From: a virus
Lineage: Duplodnaviria > Heunggongvirae > Uroviricota > Caudoviricetes
IMG/VR virus record: IMGVR_UViG_2547132272_000003
Location: 1-7,474 of that record
Reading direction: 5' to 3' (one strand)
DNA: 7,474 bases
Shown: positions 1 to 7,474 of the stretch, in pieces
Layout of the letters: each line of letters starts with the position of its first letter
Position numbering within the stretch: position 1 is the first letter of the stretch
The notes under the pieces: model-generated
The model's database searches: none
The model's input: only the letters and a program-made list of their open reading frames with translations
What the model was told of the DNA's origin: nothing
Program-made: the position numbers and the translations under genes

Positions 1-26
1 CTTACGCTACGTACTTCTCGGGGCGC

Positions 27-632
27 TTACATCGGCGTGGCGCTCACGGTCAGACCACCTGCCGTGGTGGATGCTGACAGGGTGATGTCATTCCCCCAGG
101 CACCTTTGGTCCGGGTGGTGACCGTCAGCTGAGAGGCTTCCGATTGGTATTCCCCCGTAACCAGAAGCGAAGGCGTCTGCGTCATTGCTTCCACCAGTGC
201 CGGAATGATTTTCGACGGTCCATCACCGGTTTCCACATCCACCGAAACCTGCTCACCGGCAACCCATACCGACAGTGTTCCGCTGCTGATTGCCGTACCG
301 TTGACGGTAACTGCGCCGGTTGCTGCCTTTCCTGCGCCACTGTCTGCAATACCGATAACATCCAGTTGCAGATAGCTGTTGGCATTAATGGCCGCGCGCG
401 CCATTGCAGCGGCCAGCGAACCGGCCCCGAAATACAAATCCGCTTCGTCTTCGGAATACACGGAAACGGCATTCAGGGGCGTGGCGGTGCCGCCTGACAG
501 CATCGGGCCAATCACCAGAACACGCTGTTCGTTACCCGGCAGCGTGTTAACGGCCAGCCGGGTATTAAACTCAAAATGCACACCGGGCTTACGGATGCCG
601 CCCGAAATGGTGTCAAACTGAATTTCACTCAT
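27..632 (-). CDS. Tail sheath protein (Mu gpL-like), N-terminal portion only; ORF stops after 201 codons
   Basis: ATG at 632-630 preceded on the minus strand by AGGTGG with a 6-nt spacer, and overlapping the stop of the upstream small ORF (ATGA-type overlap). The N-terminal sequence (…RKPGVHFEFN…RVLVIGPM…FGAGSLAAAMARAA…) resembles the N-domain of contractile-tail sheath proteins, and the position after gp36/gp37/gp38 homologs matches Mu L. In-frame TAA at 29-27. Mu-family sheaths are, from memory, roughly twice this length. Confidence 0.7.
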   Translation of the reverse strand: MSEIQFDTISGGIRKPGVHFEFNTRLAVNTLPGNEQRVLVIGPMLSGGTATPLNAVSVYSEDEADLYFGAGSLAAAMARAAINANSYLQLDVIGIADSGAGKAATGAVTVNGTAISSGTLSVWVAGEQVSVDVETGDGPSKIIPALVEAMTQTPSLLVTGEYQSEASQLTVTTRTKGAWGNDITLSASTTAGGLTVSATPM

Positions 633-867
633 CGGAATCCACCTGTTTCTCTCTCTTCGCCTTCGCTTTTACCTGCACGGCGTCCTGTTCAGTCGTCACG
701 GTGGTTTCAGGCTCATCCTTCACCAGAATCAGGTCACCGTCCTGAACGGCGCGCCGGTAATAAGCGGTGTTCTCAACGGTCACCGCTTCCGTGGTGATGT
801 ATTTCCGGGCGTTATCCTCCATCGGGAACTTCATCCCGGGAGCCGCCTTAACCTTCATTTTGTTCAT
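625..867 (-). CDS. Small conserved Mu-like prophage protein at the gp38 position (80 aa), function unknown
   Basis: ORF with ATG at 867 (second in-frame ATG at 858); overlaps the 3' end of the gp37-like gene by 20 nt and the sheath start by 8 nt. Sits between the K-like and L-like genes as in Mu. Lys/Glu-rich C-terminus. Family assignment is by synteny only. Confidence 0.55.
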   Translation of the reverse strand: MNKMKVKAAPGMKFPMEDNARKYITTEAVTVENTAYYRRAVQDGDLILVKDEPETTVTTEQDAVQVKAKAKREKQVDSDE

Positions 868-1429
868 GCTGTTGCTCTCTTAATTCATCCAGACCACAGA
901 TATCTGCGCCGTATTGCGTACCAATTCGCAGTAAATCCGGGTCAGGGTCTGACAGCCTGCCGTGGTAGCGGTTGAAGAGGCGATCCGCTTCTGCGCCACG
1001 CTCCGGCCATTTGCCGTTCTCCAGCGCGTGCTCCACCCAGCGGGTATCGAACTCACAGGCAAACACGGACATTGCCCGCTCTGCCACGCCGGTGTTAAAC
1101 AGCGTCCTGACCCGCCCGGGTTCGAAATAATCAATCTCCAGCCCCAAATCCTGACCGGTCAGCAGACGACGGACGGATTCAACCAGCTGGTTTGTCCCGA
1201 CCTCATCCCGGACGGTGCCTCCCTGTCTGGCGCTCTGTTCGCTGCGGGTGTTGTAATCACCCACCACAACCACAAAGCGTCCTGTGGCAATGTATTTCCG
1301 GCGTGACGTGGAATAGCGTTCGGTTTTCACGATGCCGCCGAACGTCACCCAGGCTGCCGGAAGGCTGCGAACAATCCGGCCCGGGTCTTCATCCAGTTCA
1401 CCGGCATAGGTGCGGACATCCTGCACCAT
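848..1429 (-). CDS. Mu gp37/K-like protein (DUF1834-type, head completion/neck region); true start probably upstream at a non-canonical codon near 1483
   Basis: 193-aa ORF from the first in-frame ATG (1429). The frame stays open upstream to a TGA at 1510-1508 and encodes a plausible N-terminal extension (ILITDIERALVERLRCGLGH), with GGGAGG at 1498-1493 and overlap with the gp36-like stop (TGA 1485-1483). No ATG, GTG or TTG occurs in that extension. Synteny directly downstream of the gp36-like gene. Confidence 0.75.
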   Translation of the reverse strand: MVQDVRTYAGELDEDPGRIVRSLPAAWVTFGGIVKTERYSTSRRKYIATGRFVVVVGDYNTRSEQSARQGGTVRDEVGTNQLVESVRRLLTGQDLGLEIDYFEPGRVRTLFNTGVAERAMSVFACEFDTRWVEHALENGKWPERGAEADRLFNRYHGRLSDPDPDLLRIGTQYGADICGLDELREQQHEQNEG

Positions 1430-1482
1430 ATGCCCCAGACCACAGCGCAGACGCTCAACCAGCGCCCGTTCAATGTCAGTAA

Positions 1483-1914
1483 TCAGAATGCACCTCCCCG
1501 CGTGGACTCACGCCCGAACTGACGGGAGCCGGAGCGGATACGCACCTGTGACGATGACTGGATCACGCTGCCGGACGTATCCCGCCCGAGGTTGATTTGT
1601 CCTGCCGCGACTTTCTCCAGAAAGCGGATGGCGTCCCGGTAGCGCATCTGAATTTCTTCTGAGCAGATACGGTAATCGGTCGCCAGGTGATAACGGGCGA
1701 TATCGCAGCAGTAACCCACCAGAATCCCCGGGCTGTCAGGCCACGGGGTCCGGTAACGCCCCACCAGATAGCCATCAATCTGGGCACTGGCGCGCGCAAG
1801 CGCGGAGGCCAGTTTTTCTTCGTCGATGAATCCCGTCATGTCTTCATCCGTCAGTGTGCGTGCCTCGCGTTCACTGAATGCCCTGATGAACTGTTCCGGC
1901 GTGGCGTAAGACAT
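1483..1914 (-). CDS. Mu gp36/J-like protein (DUF1320 / Phage_Mu_Gp36 family, head-tail joining)
   Basis: 143-aa ORF; ATG at 1914 preceded by AAGGAG with a 9-nt spacer; starts 3 nt after the stop of the upstream small coiled-coil gene. Size and position match Mu J/gp36. Confidence 0.8.
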   Translation of the reverse strand: MSYATPEQFIRAFSEREARTLTDEDMTGFIDEEKLASALARASAQIDGYLVGRYRTPWPDSPGILVGYCCDIARYHLATDYRICSEEIQMRYRDAIRFLEKVAAGQINLGRDTSGSVIQSSSQVRIRSGSRQFGRESTRGGAF

Positions 1915-1917
1915 GGG

Positions 1918-2259
1918 TTACTTCTCCTTTTTGTCCGCTTTTTGTGTTTTCTGTGCGGCGTTCAGCTGTGCGGTCAGTTCACTGACTTTCTGGCGTTCTT
2001 CTTCCAGCTGCGCTGTCAGTTCGCTGACTTTCTGACGCTCGGCATCCAGCTGTGCGGCCAGCTCATCACCCCGGGCCGCGTCGTTCTGGCCGGACGCTTT
2101 ATCGCGCTCCACCACAATCAGCATGGGGTCAGCCTTCAGCACCGCCAGCTGTTCCGGGGTGAACGCATCCGCAGGCCATGCCTTCGTGGTTGCGCTGTGT
2201 GCCACACCGCAGCGGCGAAAACCCTCACGGCGGGCGGTAATTTCAATCACCTTTTCCAT
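1918..2259 (-). CDS. Small Mu-like prophage protein at the gp35 position: N-terminal globular region plus C-terminal repeat-encoded coiled-coil and Lys-rich tail
   Basis: 113-aa ORF; ATG at 2259 preceded by GGAG with a 7-nt spacer, 3 nt after the T stop (TAA 2265-2263). The C-terminal third is encoded by a 42-bp tandem repeat giving ELxAQLxxERQKVS units. Placed between the major head and gp36-like genes as in Mu. Confidence 0.7.
   Translation of the reverse strand: MEKVIEITARREGFRRCGVAHSATTKAWPADAFTPEQLAVLKADPMLIVVERDKASGQNDAARGDELAAQLDAERQKVSELTAQLEEERQKVSELTAQLNAAQKTQKADKKEK
1963..2064. repeat. In-frame 42-bp direct tandem repeat (about 2.4 copies) inside the gp35-position gene
   Basis: Unit 1 at 1963-2004 (cagctgtgcggtcagttcactgactttctggcgttcttcttc), unit 2 at 2005-2046 (cagctgcgctgtcagttcgctgactttctgacgctcggcatc), partial third copy at 2047-2064 (cagctgtgcggccagctc). 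Copies differ at a few positions. Confidence 0.85.
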
Positions 2260-2262
2260 GCA

Positions 2263-3171
2263 TTACTCCGTCGTACCATCAGAACCAAATGCCATCTGCC
2301 AGAAGCCGTAACCGCCGTTACAGCGCGCTTCGGCACCAAACAGGAACTTCTTACGCTTGAACACGTTGTCGCTGTTGTAGTCCGTCTGCTCCACAAAAAC
2401 AGGCTTTTTACGTAGCTGATAAATCAGCGGTTTCACCGGTTTGGTGGTGTCAAACAGGAACCACGCAGAATCCGACGCCAGCTCCGGCATCACCAGCACT
2501 TCGGCGGTATTGCGGTACGGGTTCGGCGTGCCGTCCGGGAACTTCTCGGCGGTCATCAGGTAGTTCGCGTCATCCTCCAGCGCCGGTGGCACAACCAGCA
2601 GATTCGGGCGAATTTTGAGGGATGCGCCTTCGTCATCTTTCAGACTACGCATGGCCGTACGGGCGGCACCGTAGGAGGCTTTCGCCTCGGCAAGCGAGCC
2701 AACTTTGAGTTTTTTGGTGCCCCTGTTGGACACCGATTTACCGGCGACCAGGTGGTCGGTATCAAAGAACATCTGACCGTCGTAACATGGATTGATAAAA
2801 CCGTTACTGATAAGGGACGCCACAATATCTGCCGGTAGCTCTGCTGCCGACTGTCCGGCTCCTTTCGCCTGAAGGGCATAGCCCATAATCTGGTCGTCCT
2901 CGATGTCGTTACGATCGACTTCAACCGTGGCTTCCCAGTCCTTGTTACGGATGGTGTAGTTAAATGCCGCCAGTGATTTGACGACCTTGTCACCAATCCA
3001 CTCGCGCATTTTCGGGAAACGACTTAACCAGCTGTAGTCGTTTTCCTTGCCGTTTGATGGCACTTCCATTGCCACCTTCTGCCAGTCAGTTGGCGACTGG
3101 TCGAAGGCTTTCTGGAAGGTGGCCTTCAGATTGATAAAAATCTGTTTGACGTTTTTAACGTTGACTAACAC
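2263..3171 (-). CDS. Major head (capsid) subunit, Mu gpT-like
   Basis: Long ORF running to 3213 in the track. I place the start at GTG 3171-3169 because AAGGAG lies 6 nt upstream and this start no longer overlaps the upstream ORF (stop 3184-3182); the in-frame GTG at 3213 and ATG at 3207 lack a Shine-Dalgarno motif. The resulting length (about 302 aa) is close to my recollection of Mu T (about 305 aa). Position after the protease/scaffold gene. Confidence 0.88.
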   Translation of the reverse strand: MLVNVKNVKQIFINLKATFQKAFDQSPTDWQKVAMEVPSNGKENDYSWLSRFPKMREWIGDKVVKSLAAFNYTIRNKDWEATVEVDRNDIEDDQIMGYALQAKGAGQSAAELPADIVASLISNGFINPCYDGQMFFDTDHLVAGKSVSNRGTKKLKVGSLAEAKASYGAARTAMRSLKDDEGASLKIRPNLLVVPPALEDDANYLMTAEKFPDGTPNPYRNTAEVLVMPELASDSAWFLFDTTKPVKPLIYQLRKKPVFVEQTDYNSDNVFKRKKFLFGAEARCNGGYGFWQMAFGSDGTTE

Positions 3172-3181
3172 GTTTTGCTCC

Positions 3182-3577
3182 TTAACTGAAATGAACCCAG
3201 ACGCCATCGCCACAGATGCCGATCACTTTCCCGGCGACAGGACGGGCGCTGCTGTTGTCGGTTTTTGCCACGGTTACGCTGTCTTCCACGTAGCACAGCT
3301 TGCCGACCTGCGATTGTGTGACCGGGTCTGAGGTGCTGTTCACCATCAGAAAATCTTTGCCGCAACGCACCAGAACGGTGACATCGCCATCGCTGCCGGT
3401 GCTGTTATCCGCCCAGCCATCAGACACGCCCAGCGTAATCTGTGAGGCCGTGGCACTGGCCGGAACGGCATAACCGGATGCGTTAACGGCCACCATATGA
3501 CCGCCAAAAATTTCGGTCGCAGCGGCAACCGGCACCGGGTTCAGCTCGCCGTCACGGTAGGGGGTATTGCGATCCAT
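3182..3577 (-). CDS. Small structural-module protein between protease/scaffold and major head genes (131 aa); possibly a capsid decoration/cement-type (DUF2190-like) protein
   Basis: ATG at 3577 directly follows the I stop (TAA 3580-3578), with AGGAG 8 nt upstream. Gly/Val/Ser/Thr-rich sequence ending …GKVIGICGDGVWVHFS. The family call is tentative, from memory of small proteins found at this position in other capsid modules. Confidence 0.6.
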   Translation of the reverse strand: MDRNTPYRDGELNPVPVAAATEIFGGHMVAVNASGYAVPASATASQITLGVSDGWADNSTGSDGDVTVLVRCGKDFLMVNSTSDPVTQSQVGKLCYVEDSVTVAKTDNSSARPVAGKVIGICGDGVWVHFS

Positions 3578-4720
3578 TTACTCATCTCCTGCGTAATAGT
3601 CGTTTCCTGCATAACGGGCGATATCTTCTGGATCAGTGCCCATCATGGAACAAATGGCGATATCGACATCGACGTCATCGCCGGTTTTAATCTGCGCCGG
3701 GGCCGGTGACGGCGTTTTGGGTGGTTTGCCGCCGGTCTGTGTCTGACTGAGCGCAACAAGTTTCGGTGCGTTCTCCAGCCAGGACTTAAAGCCGTTGATA
3801 TCGCGACCGGCGTAATCTTTCGCCCAGTCTTCCTGGGCCGGAAGCAGTCGCCCGTCAGACAGTGCCGCCTGAATCAGTGCCCCGGCTTCGGCCTCACCGG
3901 ACTGTTGCGCCAGTGCGGCATAACGCCCCTGAAGTTCTTCAAAGGCAGCGAGGGAAATGTGTTTTGACGGGTCATAGGCATTGGCTGACAGGCTGGCGAT
4001 TTGCTCGTCTTTCTGATTCAGCAGGGCCAGCAGACCAACAGAAGCCGCTGCCGTTCCTTTGCCACCAGAGACAGCATCAATAATTTTTTGCAGCTCTGCG
4101 CATACTTCCTCTGCGGTTGAGGTTTCCGGCAGCGTCAGCAGCCAGCGTAACTGCGCGAGTAAATTTGCTAATTGTTCCGGGTTCACGGTTTTGGTCTCCG
4201 TTTCAGTTGACAGACTCGCCAGACGGCTGGCCGCAGCCAGCATGACCGCGTCCATACCGTCGAGCGCAGGGGTATTGGTCAGCGCAGCGTGTAACAGCTC
4301 CAGCACTTCGCCGCGCTTGTTGTAGGCAAAAACAGGGGAAATAAACTTGTACTCACCGGCGGCAATCATGGCCGCCGCGTTCTCCGTCCACTCCACACCG
4401 GTGGCATACAGGCCCGCGCCTTCTCGCCATTCCACCTGGCTGAACCAGCCCGCCGCCGGGGCGGGCTTGCCGTTGTTTACGGCGCGCAGCGTCTGATGTT
4501 CGTAATCAATGACAAAAGGCGTGGTACGGGCTGCCACCTGCGCGACAAGCTGCGCGGCCAGTTCAGCGGTCAGCACCCATTTACCGCTTTCGACTTCATC
4601 GGTATGTGGGCGACCATCCACCGCGCTGAACTCGCCCGCCGGAAACAGCTGGATTTCGCTGTGGGTTGCTTTAGTAATTTCGAGGCTTAATGCCGCAATG
4701 TTCAGTTTCATACGCGGCAT
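3578..4720 (-). CDS. Protease/scaffold protein, Mu gpI-like (scaffold Z expected as the C-terminal portion of the same frame)
   Basis: Long ORF; frame open up to GTG at 4765. I place the start at ATG 4720 (MPRMKLNIAALSLEI…); ATG 4711 and GTG 4765 are alternatives, and none has a convincing Shine-Dalgarno motif. Size (about 380 aa), the Ala/Leu-rich helical C-terminal half typical of a scaffold, and position between G and T match Mu I/Z. Confidence 0.82.
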   Translation of the reverse strand: MPRMKLNIAALSLEITKATHSEIQLFPAGEFSAVDGRPHTDEVESGKWVLTAELAAQLVAQVAARTTPFVIDYEHQTLRAVNNGKPAPAAGWFSQVEWREGAGLYATGVEWTENAAAMIAAGEYKFISPVFAYNKRGEVLELLHAALTNTPALDGMDAVMLAAASRLASLSTETETKTVNPEQLANLLAQLRWLLTLPETSTAEEVCAELQKIIDAVSGGKGTAAASVGLLALLNQKDEQIASLSANAYDPSKHISLAAFEELQGRYAALAQQSGEAEAGALIQAALSDGRLLPAQEDWAKDYAGRDINGFKSWLENAPKLVALSQTQTGGKPPKTPSPAPAQIKTGDDVDVDIAICSMMGTDPEDIARYAGNDYYAGDE

Positions 4721-4765
4721 GATGACGGAAGGGGAACACGGGGTACTGTGGAGGGTGTTCAGCAC

Positions 4766-4919
4766 CCTGCCATAACGCGAAAGGATAAAAGGGGAAATAA
4801 AACCGTTTTTAAAACCCTTTTAAAAACGATTCTGGCGGTATTTATGGGGTGCGGTGCTGTAATGCTCATCCGTGAGGCGTTTATGTCGTCAGAGTCGATT
4901 ACAGCGCGTTTGTGGTCAT
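4766..4919 (-). promoter_or_regulatory. AT-rich spacer between G and I; candidate late promoter region (Mu P_I position) containing a perfect inverted repeat
   Basis: Only notable non-coding gap in the window and markedly AT-richer than its surroundings. In Mu the C-activated late promoter P_I lies immediately upstream of gene I. Contains TTAT/ATAA and CCCC elements (minus strand: CCCCATAAATA … TTTCCCCTTTTATCC), but I cannot match them to the C-binding consensus from memory. Confidence 0.35.
4804..4828. repeat. Perfect inverted repeat: 11-bp arms (cgtttttaaaa / ttttaaaaacg) around a 3-nt loop
   Basis: Read directly: 4804-4814 cgtttttaaaa, 4815-4817 ccc, 4818-4828 ttttaaaaacg. Each arm contains the self-complementary octamer TTTTAAAA. 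On the minus strand it is followed by GTTTTATTT. Confidence 0.85.
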
Positions 4920-5471
4920 TCAGTCAATCACACGCGCAAAATAGCGGTTTGCGGTGTTCTCCAGCTCGTCGATGTCGTCCTGCACAAGCTGAAGGAAGGG
5001 GCGCGCGGGCATGTTGACCGTATACGCTCCGACCGTTGCGCTCTGTACAAAATTACTGTTGCGCTTTTTCACAAAGCGGGTGCTGACGCTGCCGTTTTTG
5101 TACTGTTTAAAATACAGGTTCTGCGTCCGTGCCTGATGGCGGATTTCGCCGCCTTCGTTGTGGATACGGGCGTAACGGACGTTTGTCCCGACCGTGGCCT
5201 CGTTATTGTTAACCGCAGAGCGGATACTGGCAGCCAGTCGCCCGGACTTCTGAAGGATTTGCCCGGGGCCGCGTCGCTTCGCATAAGCCGGACTCCAGCC
5301 CATCCATTTCGGGCGACCCTGTTGTTCAAAGTTAGTCTCAACCGCATCCAGCATGGAACCCGCAAGCGCCGTCATCAGGTCGCGCCGGTCCTTCACGGAA
5401 CGAATCAGTTTCCCCAGCGTGGTGTTATACGCGCTTAAATCAATCTTAATATCCAGTTTACCGCTGCTCAT
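4920..5471 (-). CDS. Virion morphogenesis protein, Mu gpG-like
   Basis: 183-aa ORF; ATG at 5471 overlaps the F stop (ATGA, TGA 5470-5468) with GGAGG 4 nt upstream. Position between F and I as in Mu. Mu G is shorter from memory, so an internal start cannot be excluded, but the RBS and overlap favour 5471. Confidence 0.7.
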   Translation of the reverse strand: MSSGKLDIKIDLSAYNTTLGKLIRSVKDRRDLMTALAGSMLDAVETNFEQQGRPKWMGWSPAYAKRRGPGQILQKSGRLAASIRSAVNNNEATVGTNVRYARIHNEGGEIRHQARTQNLYFKQYKNGSVSTRFVKKRNSNFVQSATVGAYTVNMPARPFLQLVQDDIDELENTANRYFARVID

Positions 5472-6634
5472 GATGCCTCCGGTGTGTCCTGCATAACCCA
5501 GTCTGTCAGCACGTCATCCTCAACCGTCACCACCGACCAGCGGTCGCCCGACTGTAACGCATACCGCCACGCGTTGCCGTCCTGCGTGACATGCTCCGCC
5601 CGTTCGATAGTCTGCTGCATCAGCACATAGTCGGCGGCGGTCGGGGGCGCGTCTGCTGCACTGAGGCGCTTCATAACGTCAGCCGTAAGGTTTACCGTCT
5701 GCCGTGCAGCGCCCGTGGCGGCGACCTGTTCTGGTGAACGGATGGCCAGCGGATATCGCTGGCGCGCATCCAGTTCGCTGACGTTCGCCAGTCCCCGGGC
5801 AAAATCCGGCCCGGTCAGGGTGCCGGTAACATACTGGCGGGCGCTGCGGTAATCGTATTTTTCCAGTTCCGGCTGCCATGCCACTTTGCCGGGGTTAAAA
5901 CCGAAGCCCGGGTCGGCGGTATACACGGAGCCGTCCGGCATCTTCAGCCCCATTGTTCTGATGGTCTGGCCCGGCTGACCATATTCCTGTTCAACCTCAA
6001 CCAGTCGCCCATCGCTGCTCTGCACCGTCAGGCCATATTTCTCCACATCAGACGCCGAACGCGCCCGGATACGGCAGCGGCATCCGTACCCGTCCGGCGC
6101 GTAGAAATACTCCCAGACCGGGTCATCCGCCCGGGCGGTAAAACCGTTCATGGCGGCGTGTTTCGGGCGGGTGTGAAGGTCCATCACCGCCACGCGCTCA
6201 AAATAAGGCCGGTCGGCCACGTTCGCCATCTGCTGCTGATAGCGTCCGGCGTTGTAGGACGACTGAATGTTGGTATCAAATATCGTGCGCAACCGGCGCG
6301 GCGTCAGCTGCCTGCCGTGCAGTTCGCCGGTGTCCTCGTCCACAATCAGCCGTTTACCCAGCCAGCCTTTTTTCTCCAGTAACGGCTCCAGTTGTGCAGC
6401 AAACTCCCGGAACGTCCCGCCGTCAGCCAGTGCCGCCGTCAGGCCGTCACGGATATCCTTCAGCACATCCAGTTTCAGCACACCCGCCACCGTGAACGCC
6501 CGGGCGTGTGCGATGTCCTTCACATCGTGCCAGCGGAAGCCGATAACGTATCCCTTGCTTTCGAAATACGTAATCGCTTCTTCCGGTTTCAGGGTGTACG
6601 CATACCCCAGGTCAACATCGTCAGCTGTCGGCAT
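5468..6634 (-). CDS. Head morphogenesis protein, Mu gpF-like (Phage_Mu_F family)
   Basis: 388-aa ORF; ATG at 6634 overlaps the portal 3' end by 14 nt; G-rich stretch (GGGGG) 7 nt upstream. Position directly downstream of the portal gene, as for Mu F/gp30. Confidence 0.8.
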   Translation of the reverse strand: MPTADDVDLGYAYTLKPEEAITYFESKGYVIGFRWHDVKDIAHARAFTVAGVLKLDVLKDIRDGLTAALADGGTFREFAAQLEPLLEKKGWLGKRLIVDEDTGELHGRQLTPRRLRTIFDTNIQSSYNAGRYQQQMANVADRPYFERVAVMDLHTRPKHAAMNGFTARADDPVWEYFYAPDGYGCRCRIRARSASDVEKYGLTVQSSDGRLVEVEQEYGQPGQTIRTMGLKMPDGSVYTADPGFGFNPGKVAWQPELEKYDYRSARQYVTGTLTGPDFARGLANVSELDARQRYPLAIRSPEQVAATGAARQTVNLTADVMKRLSAADAPPTAADYVLMQQTIERAEHVTQDGNAWRYALQSGDRWSVVTVEDDVLTDWVMQDTPEAS

Positions 6635-7474
6635 TCAGTCGCCCCCAGATATCCGCCACAAAGAATGCCTGTGTCAGCAACTGCCGCAGCGTGTCATCCG
6701 GCAGTTCCGGCCACGCTTCCGCCAGTACGTTCATGGCCTCGTCCGCATCCCGGCCTTCCTGTATGGCCTGCACCAGTGGGGCCACCAGTTCGTTCATCCC
6801 CTGCGCGATGGCCTCTGCCGGAAGCTCTGCCCGGTCGATGGCGCGCTGTGCCGGGTCGTCCTCCCCGTTGTCCTGCTGACTGAGTGCGACAACATTCAGC
6901 CGCTCACGCAGCTGGCTGAGGCCCGCCTGCACAGGGAGACGCTGTGCCACCGGCACCAGCACCTCTTCGCCGTCTTTCGGGGTGGGGATGCCGGTTTTTT
7001 TGCGCACCCACGACGCCGGAATATCCTTCATTCCCACACTGTTGAGCAACACGTTGACGGCTTCTGCCACACCCTTAATGTCGGCTTCCTGCTGCACATC
7101 AAACACCAGTCGCGGAAGACGGCGTGGCGGGACATCCTGCCAGCCGTTCAGGCTGGCCATCATCTGTATCAGGCTGCTGAACATGCCGGACAGCTGGCGA
7201 GCATCGGCGGCCAGAATGTCGTGCCGGACCTCGTTATGCACATTACCCAGCGCGTTGGTGGAGGTTTTACCGTCAGCCTGGCTGGTCAGCGTACTGCCCA
7301 GAATCACTTTTGAGGTGGTGCGCTCCGCCCATTCCACCATCGACATGAACGCCTCCGGCCCGCCGGACGCGGCTTCCTTGAACTCGATTTCATTACCCTG
7401 CGGCAGGGCTGCCACCGCTTCATGGCCCAGATTAACCAGGGCTTCGAGAATGTTGTCCCGGTCCTCGTCACTGG
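6621..7474 (-). CDS. Portal protein, Mu gp29-like (DUF935 family); 3' portion only, N-terminus beyond the window
   Basis: The frame is open from the window edge (7472) down to TGA at 6623-6621. The translated edge region reads …SDEDRDNILEALVNLGHEAVAALPQGNEIEF…, so the ORF-track start at 7415 (a GTG) is not the real start. Position upstream of the F-like gene. Confidence 0.8.
   Translation of the reverse strand, partial: SDEDRDNILEALVNLGHEAVAALPQGNEIEFKEAASGGPEAFMSMVEWAERTTSKVILGSTLTSQADGKTSTNALGNVHNEVRHDILAADARQLSGMFSSLIQMMASLNGWQDVPPRRLPRLVFDVQQEADIKGVAEAVNVLLNSVGMKDIPASWVRKKTGIPTPKDGEEVLVPVAQRLPVQAGLSQLRERLNVVALSQQDNGEDDPAQRAIDRAELPAEAIAQGMNELVAPLVQAIQEGRDADEAMNVLAEAWPELPDDTLRQLLTQAFFVADIWGRLNADS

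Follow-up and report, generated by a model that had tools for sequence, protein, structure and literature searches.

Strong gyrase sites (SGSs) have been described in Mu-like prophages only (PMC3820752), and two of them, those of phage Mu and of the prophage Sp18, have reported activity in Mu replication. SGSs depend on a central location for their function (Pato 1994, cited in PMC3820752), and the central gyrase site of Sp18, from Escherichia coli O157:H7 Sakai, is reported to be the only heterologous site that replaces the Mu SGS well (review PMC10052514). According to reviews, the Mu SGS's right arm is essential, contains phased signals for anisotropic bending and serves as the T-segment; cryo-electron microscopy (cryo-EM) of the Mu site shows the AT repeats of this arm facing the GyrA C-terminal domain via the minor groove, with five sharp right-arm bends stabilised by GyrA-box loops. 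Here we analyse an inverted repeat in the spacer between the head genes G and I of a Mu-like prophage of the Caudoviricetes, carried on positions 1 to 7,474 of IMG/VR record IMGVR_UViG_2547132272_000003 (this whole stretch of 7,474 nt is hereinafter designated the window), and propose that the repeat probably belongs to the right arm of a Mu-type central SGS.

The inverted repeat consists of two phased TTTAAA blocks

The repeat, CGTTTTTAAAA-ccc-TTTTAAAAACG in the plus-strand reading, occupies positions 4804–4828 and has perfect 11-nt arms around a 3-nt loop, exactly as described in the original prediction made from the letters of the window; its arms extend to 14 nt at 93% complementarity. The stem is A/T save for its terminal C-G and G-C pairs, again in line with that prediction, and the TTAT and CCCC elements noted at its flanks follow the repeat on the sense (minus) strand. 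Read on that strand, the repeat resolves into two A/T blocks, TTTTTAAAA (4818–4826) and TTTTAAAAA (4806–4814), with GGG between them, that is, two copies of the self-complementary TTTAA(A) whose TpA steps lie 11 bp apart (hereinafter designated the twin block). The repeat reads as a palindrome because TTTTAAAA equals its own reverse complement: two direct, in-phase copies of TTTAAA are present, and an inverted repeat therefore arises automatically.

To follow the element beyond the window, 123 related loci were collected via the I protein, and 20 sequences were aligned that comprise the window family, enteric relatives, three distant elements, Mu, Sp18 and a Mu relative in E. coli SE11. The twin block is gapless in all 20, with the consensus CGTTTTTAAAAGGGGTTTAAAAGCGGTT, the pattern T3-5A2-5, 4-5 nt linker, T3-4A2-5, and an invariant TpA-to-TpA spacing of 11 bp. 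Both the TTTAA(A) sequence and the 11-bp spacing are kept even where I-protein identity falls to ~40%. Of 118 loci, 46 have a looser pattern (T3-6 A2-5, 2-7 nt, T3-5 A2-5) in their G-I spacer; elsewhere in these loci it is found only 15 times in ~940 kb. In relatives with otherwise unalignable spacers, three blocks persist, namely CAAACGCGCTGTAAT, which adjoins the end of G, the inverted repeat, and GCTGAACCCCCTCA, which lies ~50 nt ahead of the I start codon.

Complementarity itself is not what is conserved. Across the 11 pairs of the repeat in the 20 sequences, 76.3% are paired, compared with 76.1% when partners are shuffled, and 263 of 500 shuffles equal or exceed the observed value; the outer pairs are broken in 7-11 of the 20 sequences, and the inner TTTAAA/TTTAAA pairs alone persist. 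Since pairing stands at the shuffled level, selection acts on the blocks and their spacing, not on complementarity or a hairpin. The original prediction had read the palindrome as the sign of a dimeric protein-binding site; these numbers make it a by-product of two TTTAAA copies.

The prophage L152 of E. coli SE11, 77% identical to Mu in this region, carries the twin block GTTTTTGAAGGGGTTTTGAAGGGGG, with TTTGAA for TTTAAA at both positions and the same spacing, so that both blocks are changed in parallel.

Might the repeat be a chance or neutral A/T-rich leftover without function? It lies in intergenic A/T-rich DNA of a GC-rich phage, where self-complementary T/A runs readily look palindromic. 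Only 2 of 300 dinucleotide shuffles of the 7.4-kb window, however, yield any perfect inverted repeat whose arms reach 11 nt or more and whose loop is no longer than 6 nt, and for the 21-mer of the repeat 0 matches are expected at up to three mismatches. Each of 19 viral contigs has the exact 25-mer once, despite varying flanking spacer sequence, and the block is gapless in lineages whose spacers cannot otherwise be aligned. A functionless leftover is hardly credible, being already contradicted by this conservation.

The twin block recurs in the G-I spacers of Mu and Sp18

The Mu record lists three features between G and I, in this order: the gyrase cut at 17879/17880, a predicted hairpin at 17908-17953 and the late promoter P_I at 17977-18043. 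The 133-bp "Mu SGS" fragment of Sutormin et al. maps to Mu 17812-17944 with its centre at 17876, and the twin block lies inside this fragment, in its right arm, at offsets +37 to +57 counted from the centre of the site; the Mu T5|A3 step follows the cut at a distance of 42 bp. The window has the same flanking genes and the same order of elements, from the candidate cut site through a phased right arm and a late-promoter box to gene I. Both spacers share the block (G)ATTTTTAAA-CCGG-TATTTAA-CGG, followed by TTTTATC..CCTTTC (Mu, ...GCATAAAATCAGCCGCACAGATTTTTTAAAACGCGCCACGGGATTTTTAAACCGGTATTTAACGGTGTATGAATCCCGTTTTATCTTCCTTTC; window sense strand, ...GAGCATTACAGCACCGCACCCCATAAATACCGCCAGAATCGTTTTTAAAAGGGTTTTAAAAACGGTTTTATTTCCCCTTTTATCCTTTC), and an AAAA-type A/T block 12-15 nt upstream of the T5 run that opens the twin block is kept in Mu, in the window and in relatives.

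The best local alignment between the Mu and window spacers consists of the twin block plus TTTTATC..CCTTTC (z 4.2; 3 of 500 shuffles reach it), and the best alignment between Mu and Sp18 falls on the same twin block (z 7.4; 0 of 500 shuffles). The Sp18-window alignment taken alone is not significant (z 1.35). Like the site of the window, that of Sp18 sits between G and I of a Mu-like prophage of E. coli, and it has the same phased blocks, ATTTTCTAA-CCTG-TATTTAA-CGGG-CTTTAAAA. Beyond the twin block, the window prophage has no DNA similarity to Sp18. Differences from Mu are also evident: overall spacer identity is low, with ~50 bp alignable and the sequence around the cut not conserved; after the G stop and ahead of the site, the window has ~44 extra bases, which form an imperfect hairpin; and the Mu site is gyrase-mapped, whereas that of the window is predicted from sequence. 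The second block is TTTTAAAAA in the window and TATTTAA in Mu, which is why the palindrome is perfect in the window.

The position within the phage genome is near-central in both. It was measured on L149, a complete relative of the window prophage from strain STEC316 contained within ~42 kb and inserted between agaF and agaE. The site centre in L149 (inferred at 20640) lies at ~0.53 of the prophage, compared with 0.49 in Mu and ~0.47 in Sp18. The L149 prophage ends, ~783-38405, were estimated from repeated ATTCTGGGCG transposase-site motifs; no exact 5-bp target duplications were found flanking L149. Three of these ATTCTGGGCG motifs lie near the left end (783-960) and three near the right end (38324-38405), in direct and inverted orientation, and they look like transposase end-binding sites of the window-type lineage.

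Fit of the spacer to the gyrase pattern

We scored each locus with a template that is a symmetrised G/C-versus-A/T pattern built from the published 133-bp gyrase consensus string and not a position matrix, and that is consequently crude. In Mu, the template ranks the true SGS second in 36.7 kb, at exactly 17876. In the window, its best score is at 4879 (z 4.19), within the spacer, with a second peak at 4860 (z 3.47), the position expected from Mu homology; the best score outside the spacer has z 3.56. The spacer is the top of the whole 42 kb of L149 (z 4.87; next 3.85) and holds the top of each ~9-kb locus in all 18 close relatives; among ~98 more distant loci it does so in only 10.

A mean template profile anchored on the twin block was computed over 19 non-redundant relatives, with Mu and the window family excluded, and peaks at -41, compared with the mapped Mu register of -42. 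The anchor itself adds to the score, so 29 bp round the twin block were masked; the -41 peak is still the highest, at 1.30 overall and 1.79 in the enteric relatives.

The Topo-Seq motif for gyrase binding in E. coli (Sutormin et al. 2019, PMC6379681) spans 130 bp with A/T blocks every ~10.75 bp in both arms. Five A/T blocks of the window match the A/T positions that the gyrase consensus has in its right arm, and the outer right arm of the consensus, CCTTTAAGGGGGCCTTTTGG, resembles TTTTTAAAAGGGTTTTAAAAACGG of the window; the window blocks differ in being longer, purer and 11-12 bp apart. Two other comparisons were set aside: templates of the right or left arm alone were not discriminating, even for Mu, and a proposed SGS segment of Pseudomonas phage Ab30 (PMC5977238) contains a different, unrelated inverted repeat elsewhere and is not informative.

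Proposed architecture of the site

On the central position, the conservation, the homology to Mu and Sp18 and the pattern fit of the site we build the following model, in which gyrase binding, cleavage, the exact cut and a role in replication and transposition are what we infer. Gyrase would bind ~130 bp of the G-I spacer and cleave near 4860-4863 (alternative register 4879-4882). If centred as in Mu, with the dimensions given in PMC6379681, the predicted footprint of 130 bp (-63 to +66) covers 4797-4926; its register follows from Mu homology together with the template scores. The predicted 4-bp cleavage stagger, with the sense sequence ATTA, is placed by homology to the Mu register, and the exact cut can be put no more closely than at 4860-4863 or 4879-4882.

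The I-proximal right arm (~4780-4859) would wrap round the GyrA C-terminal beta-pinwheel and present five A/T blocks, 11-12 bp apart, all given here as sense (minus-strand) sequence with offsets relative to the centre 4863-4860. Block 1 is ATAAATA (+18 to +24; 4839-4845), and the inverted repeat would be blocks 2 (+37 to +45) and 3 (+49 to +57) of the arm, at the coordinates given above. Block 4, TTTTATTT (+61 to +68; 4795-4802), and block 5, TTTTAT (+73 to +78; 4785-4790), continue the ~12-bp phasing, involve a 12-nt direct repeat and align with Mu CCCGTTTTATCTTCCTTTC; together (4785-4802) they also form the U-rich tail of a possible terminator. Each block would offer a compressible minor groove and a flexible TpA step to the protein, with the G/C linkers turned outward. 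As in Mu, highly processive supercoiling from a site in mid-prophage would extrude the prophage as a supercoiled loop and so bring its ends together for transpososome assembly and replicative transposition.

A DNA-bending element had been one of the options offered in the original prediction, and the phased A/T blocks and the resemblance to a Mu-type gyrase site make it the best supported of them.

Several points weigh against this assignment. The template, crude as it is and built from a consensus string, yields two window registers 19 bp apart and places the experimentally active Sp18 site only at rank 267 (z 2.5), and the masked profile lacks a peak in the distant non-enteric relatives. The Fourier power of A/T periodicity peaks at 4790-4849 in the window, yet misses the true Mu SGS and also fails to pick the site in L149; periodicity power was given no weight because the true Mu SGS is not picked out. 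The twin block alone is not diagnostic, since TTTAA-N6-TTTAA arrays occur elsewhere in the prophage, and the site of the window lineage is a predicted one. A homologous site need not be "strong" either: work of Oram and Pato from 2004 is said to have found that central sites of Salmonella and Haemophilus Mu-like prophages are cleaved by gyrase but do not support Mu replication.

The strict conservation of TTTAAA, beyond generic A/T richness, could also indicate another specific binding protein. The twin TTTAAA would then be a site for a nucleoid-associated or other protein (H-NS, Fis, IHF, HU or another) that organises the prophage domain independently of gyrase. An exact TTTAA(A) with 11-bp spacing kept well beyond generic A/T richness would suit such a protein, as would the phased TTTAA arrays at the left end, at the A-B junction, there also in Mu, and elsewhere; moreover, besides the SGS, the Mu prophage domain depends on IHF, Fis and HU in order to form (PMC3820752). 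Against it, neither the spacing between the block and the upstream A/T block nor that between the block and the centre of the gyrase motif varies, as expected within one gyrase footprint, and cryo-EM of the Mu site shows direct contact between GyrA and the AT repeats in the right arm. By inspection, the repeat has no good match to the consensus of IHF, WATCAANNNNTTR, or of Fis, G-N13-C. We regard a gyrase-independent protein site as unlikely and a gyrase right arm as the probable identity of the twin block.

The arrays themselves are distributed as follows. Triple TTTAA blocks in 11-bp phase are found at the junction of the transposase gene (A) and B, at 4211-4237 in L149 and 3315-3341 in Mu (L150), at a junction where Mu and the window-type prophage have no other DNA similarity. 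L149 further carries phased TTTAA-N6-TTTAA arrays near its left end at ~960-1000 (TTTTTAAAAGATTTTAAAACTCGTTTAAAAG, ~115 nt past the downstream end of the repressor gene), in an early intergenic gap at 7116-7142, and inside terL at 16082-16097, the last conserved in L143-L148. L149 has nine TTTAA-N6-TTTAA matches in all, compared with 0.06 expected from mononucleotide shuffles.

Transcription termination, an unlikely main role of the repeat

The repeat can also be read as RNA. In this alternative it would be mainly an intrinsic (rho-independent) terminator that ends the lysis-to-G late transcript and insulates it from the I operon, which is activated separately. Folding of the sense RNA gives a 16-bp hairpin (-12.3 kcal/mol) with the U-rich tail UUUUAUUUCCCCUUUUAU after it, and the Mu twin block lies within a hairpin of -19.8 kcal/mol followed by UUUUAUCUU, which GenBank annotates as a TransTermHP terminator.

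The structures just after G bear on the same question. In the relatives L001 and L002, CAAACGCGCTGTAAT supplies the 5' arm of a terminator-like hairpin with a U run behind it, and more distant relatives have a clean hairpin of this kind here (AAACGCGC...GCGCGTTT, then T's). At this position the window has an imperfect hairpin on the minus strand (4856-4905; outer arms GCTGTAAT / ATTACAGC; -13.4 kcal/mol), which contains both candidate cleavage centres and is not followed by a U-tract. The window family has lost the 3' arm of the post-G hairpin seen in L001 and L002, and the repeat could replace its role. Compared with close relatives (GATGAGGCATTAC), the window additionally lacks 1 nt, a deletion by which the inner GCCTCA/TGAGGC stem of the 4856-4905 hairpin is weakened.

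As a classical terminator the repeat is nonetheless poor, in agreement with the original prediction: its stem is almost all A/U, the fold has z -2.0 with 8 of 200 shuffles folding as well, and a pattern scan makes no call on it. The scan rule demands at least three G-C pairs and a loop of at most 8 nt and misses the obvious hairpins of L001, L002 and Mu, which were folded separately; simple promoter and terminator scans of the spacers of the window, L001, L002 and Mu likewise gave no calls. Pairing across the 20 relatives is at the shuffled expectation, with the outer pairs often broken as described above. The relatives that carry the twin block often have no U-tract after it, and some have a separate upstream terminator; because lineages of both kinds keep the block, termination cannot explain its conservation. 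We therefore consider it doubtful that termination is the main role of the repeat. A secondary terminator role in the window lineage is plausible, in which the A/U hairpin and U-rich tail of the proposed gyrase arm may additionally, and weakly, terminate the lysis-to-G late transcript.

A probable late-promoter box lies between the repeat and gene I

A late promoter in the gap, anticipated in the original prediction from the position of P_I in Mu, is very probable. The motif in question is not the repeat, though, but GTGCTGAACACCC (4753-4765, minus strand; core CTGAACNCC), a probable box for a Mor/C-type activator located ~50 bp downstream of the repeat. This 13-mer occurs exactly three times in the 42 kb of L149 (13466, 20737 and 32629), always on the sense strand and each time in the intergenic DNA before a late operon, those of holin, I and gp46/W. 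The core CTGAACNCC(C/T)TCA does not vary among 15 non-redundant sequences, elements from Aquitalea, Pseudomonas and Photorhabdus among them, and the distance from the box to the I ATG is fixed at 50-52 nt. All 15 have an NAnnnT hexamer at positions 39-44 or 40-45 from the box, then 6-7 nt, then ATG; examples are CATCAT, TATGCT, TATTCT and GACACT. In the window, the -10-like hexamer is CATCAT (4719-4724, minus strand), 7 nt before the I start codon.

The box resembles those of the C-dependent late promoters of Mu (Plys, P_I, P_P and Pmom). There, the C box CATAACCCC, which CTGAACCCC resembles, is followed 19-20 nt later by TAGACT, CAAACT, TATCCT or TAAGAT. In the window lineage, too, a box stands at a fixed distance from an NAnnnT hexamer ahead of three late operons, the first of which has a Mor/C-family gene just upstream; a single Mor/C-family protein, of 155 amino acids, is encoded in the prophage family, just upstream of the holin region. 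The box-to-hexamer distance differs, ~29 nt in the window lineage compared with 19-20 nt in Mu, and so does the leader: that of Mu P_I is ~25 nt long with a ribosome-binding site, whereas the hexamer of the window lineage is 6-7 nt from the ATG. No Shine-Dalgarno sequence is present before the I and gp46/W start codons (window 4709-4724; L149 ~32667-32684), which follow hexamers such as CATCAT, CAGACT and GACACT at 6-7 nt. The closeness of the hexamer to the ATG and the missing Shine-Dalgarno sequence suggest that the I and gp46/W mRNAs are leaderless or nearly so. On these grounds GTGCTGAACACCC is the likely late-promoter box of the window lineage, and the arrangement of CTGAACNCC box, ~29 nt, NAnnnT, 6-7 nt and ATG may drive leaderless I and baseplate mRNAs.

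The original prediction had favoured the repeat itself as a dimeric site for a C-like late activator, and a Mor/C-family activator or another phage regulator of the I promoter could in principle bind there: the repeat precedes I in the gap that holds P_I in Mu, it has dyad symmetry, and the prophage family encodes one Mor/C-family protein. When the regions before the lysis gene and the other late operons of L149 are aligned, however, the shared motif is GTGCTGAACACCC; the twin block is not found before the holin or gp46/W (baseplate) operons. The repeat is unlike the Mu C boxes, and its conservation extends to Mu and Sp18, which have other activators and boxes. Among relatives, the repeat lies ~60 to >100 bp away from the box, and its spacing to the I start varies likewise, whereas box and ATG keep their distance; because of this variation, the repeat is not a promoter element. 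An activator-binding role of the repeat is thus highly unlikely.

Boundaries of the spacer

The G-I gap is the only long non-coding stretch of the window, as predicted, the second largest gap being 53 nt (1430-1482), and its GC content is 0.475, compared with 0.55-0.65 elsewhere in the window. The range first given for the spacer, 4766-4919, holds at its upper limit but not at its lower one. An open reading frame (ORF) finder had taken GTG 4765 as the start codon of I, a codon that is contained in GTGCTGAACACCC, and the range consequently misses the probable late-promoter box by a single base. We rejected this N-terminal extension of I: Pfam and PHROG profiles begin at MKLN, PGAP picks the second ATG in the relative L149, and the upstream stretch is out of frame or contains a stop in the relatives L067 and L005. 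The start of I is therefore placed at ATG 4711-4709, and the corrected G-I intergenic spacer is 208 nt long (~4712-4919). A 36-amino-acid sense ORF at 4759-4869 was also rejected as a small spacer protein, a 1-nt indel causing a frameshift in close relatives.

The window prophage represents a separate lineage

A Mu-like head module fills the window, with all genes on the minus strand (ORFs, Pfam and PHROG profiles), and the gene identities together with the layout of the Mu record bear out the assignment of the gap to the Mu G-I spacer. In the direction of transcription, the portal gene (6621-7415) and F (5468-6634) are followed by the upstream neighbour of the spacer, a homologue of gene G encoding a virion morphogenesis protein of 183 amino acids (4920-5471; Pfam PF05069, 2.3e-26; PHROG 26). 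Beyond the spacer lies gene I, the head protease/scaffold gene, with its corrected start (3578-4711; Pfam PF10123, 4.5e-98; PHROG 328), and past I come a PHROG-1731 protein, the major head protein T, gp36, gp37 and the start of the tail sheath gene. An Rfam scan of the whole window gave no covariance-model match with E <=1.

The same prophage type is present in 55 of 5426 complete E. coli genomes at 93-98% identity across the region, including enteropathogenic E. coli E2348/69 and several Shiga toxin-producing E. coli (STEC) strains, sometimes in two or three copies. L149 encodes a repressor, a transposase, a MuB-like ATPase, GemA, one Mor/C-family gene, and lysis, head and tail genes. Outside the shared spacer block, no DNA similarity to Mu or to Sakai Sp18 was found in the window prophage, which is a separate lineage, neither Mu nor Sp18. 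A blastn search with the spacer against 50,697 phage records returned no match, and tblastn with the I protein found no cultured phage above 47% identity, so that there is no close annotated relative to lean on.

An identical G gene stands at three separate chromosomal places in one E. coli genome (L144-L146, GCA_047262065.1), STEC316 (NZ_CP041431.1) has the window-type region at two places, and two matches are on plasmid-sized records of ~249 kb. Multiple copies per genome are consistent with a still-transposing prophage or with repeated lysogeny.

Discussion

Two points concern annotation. An A/T palindrome in the middle of a Mu-like prophage is not an operator or a terminator by default, and a late-promoter box can hide in an over-extended ORF call, as GTGCTGAACACCC does when GTG 4765 is taken as a start codon.

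The spacer element of the window is a probable further member of the Mu-type SGS family, possibly doubling as a weak terminator. SGSs are rare, and good support of Mu replication is reported for those of Mu and Sp18 alone. A third lineage in E. coli, independent of these two and with this core block in common, would provide natural variation with which to approach gyrase-site "strength" and the choice of the T-segment arm, and the twin block is also common to many more distant elements.

The twin block is seen from Mu and Sp18 to Photorhabdus elements and several other elements of Gamma- and Betaproteobacteria. We tentatively entertain the possibility that TTTAA(A) with a 4-5 nt G/C linker and 11-bp TpA spacing could be an ancient, sequence-specific core of the central sites of transposable phages. 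If so, the twin block would be a core element read by a particular surface of the GyrA beta-pinwheel or by a partner protein, which decides the T-segment arm, and, beyond being one of many phased A/T stretches, it would be usable as a signature for predicting SGSs.

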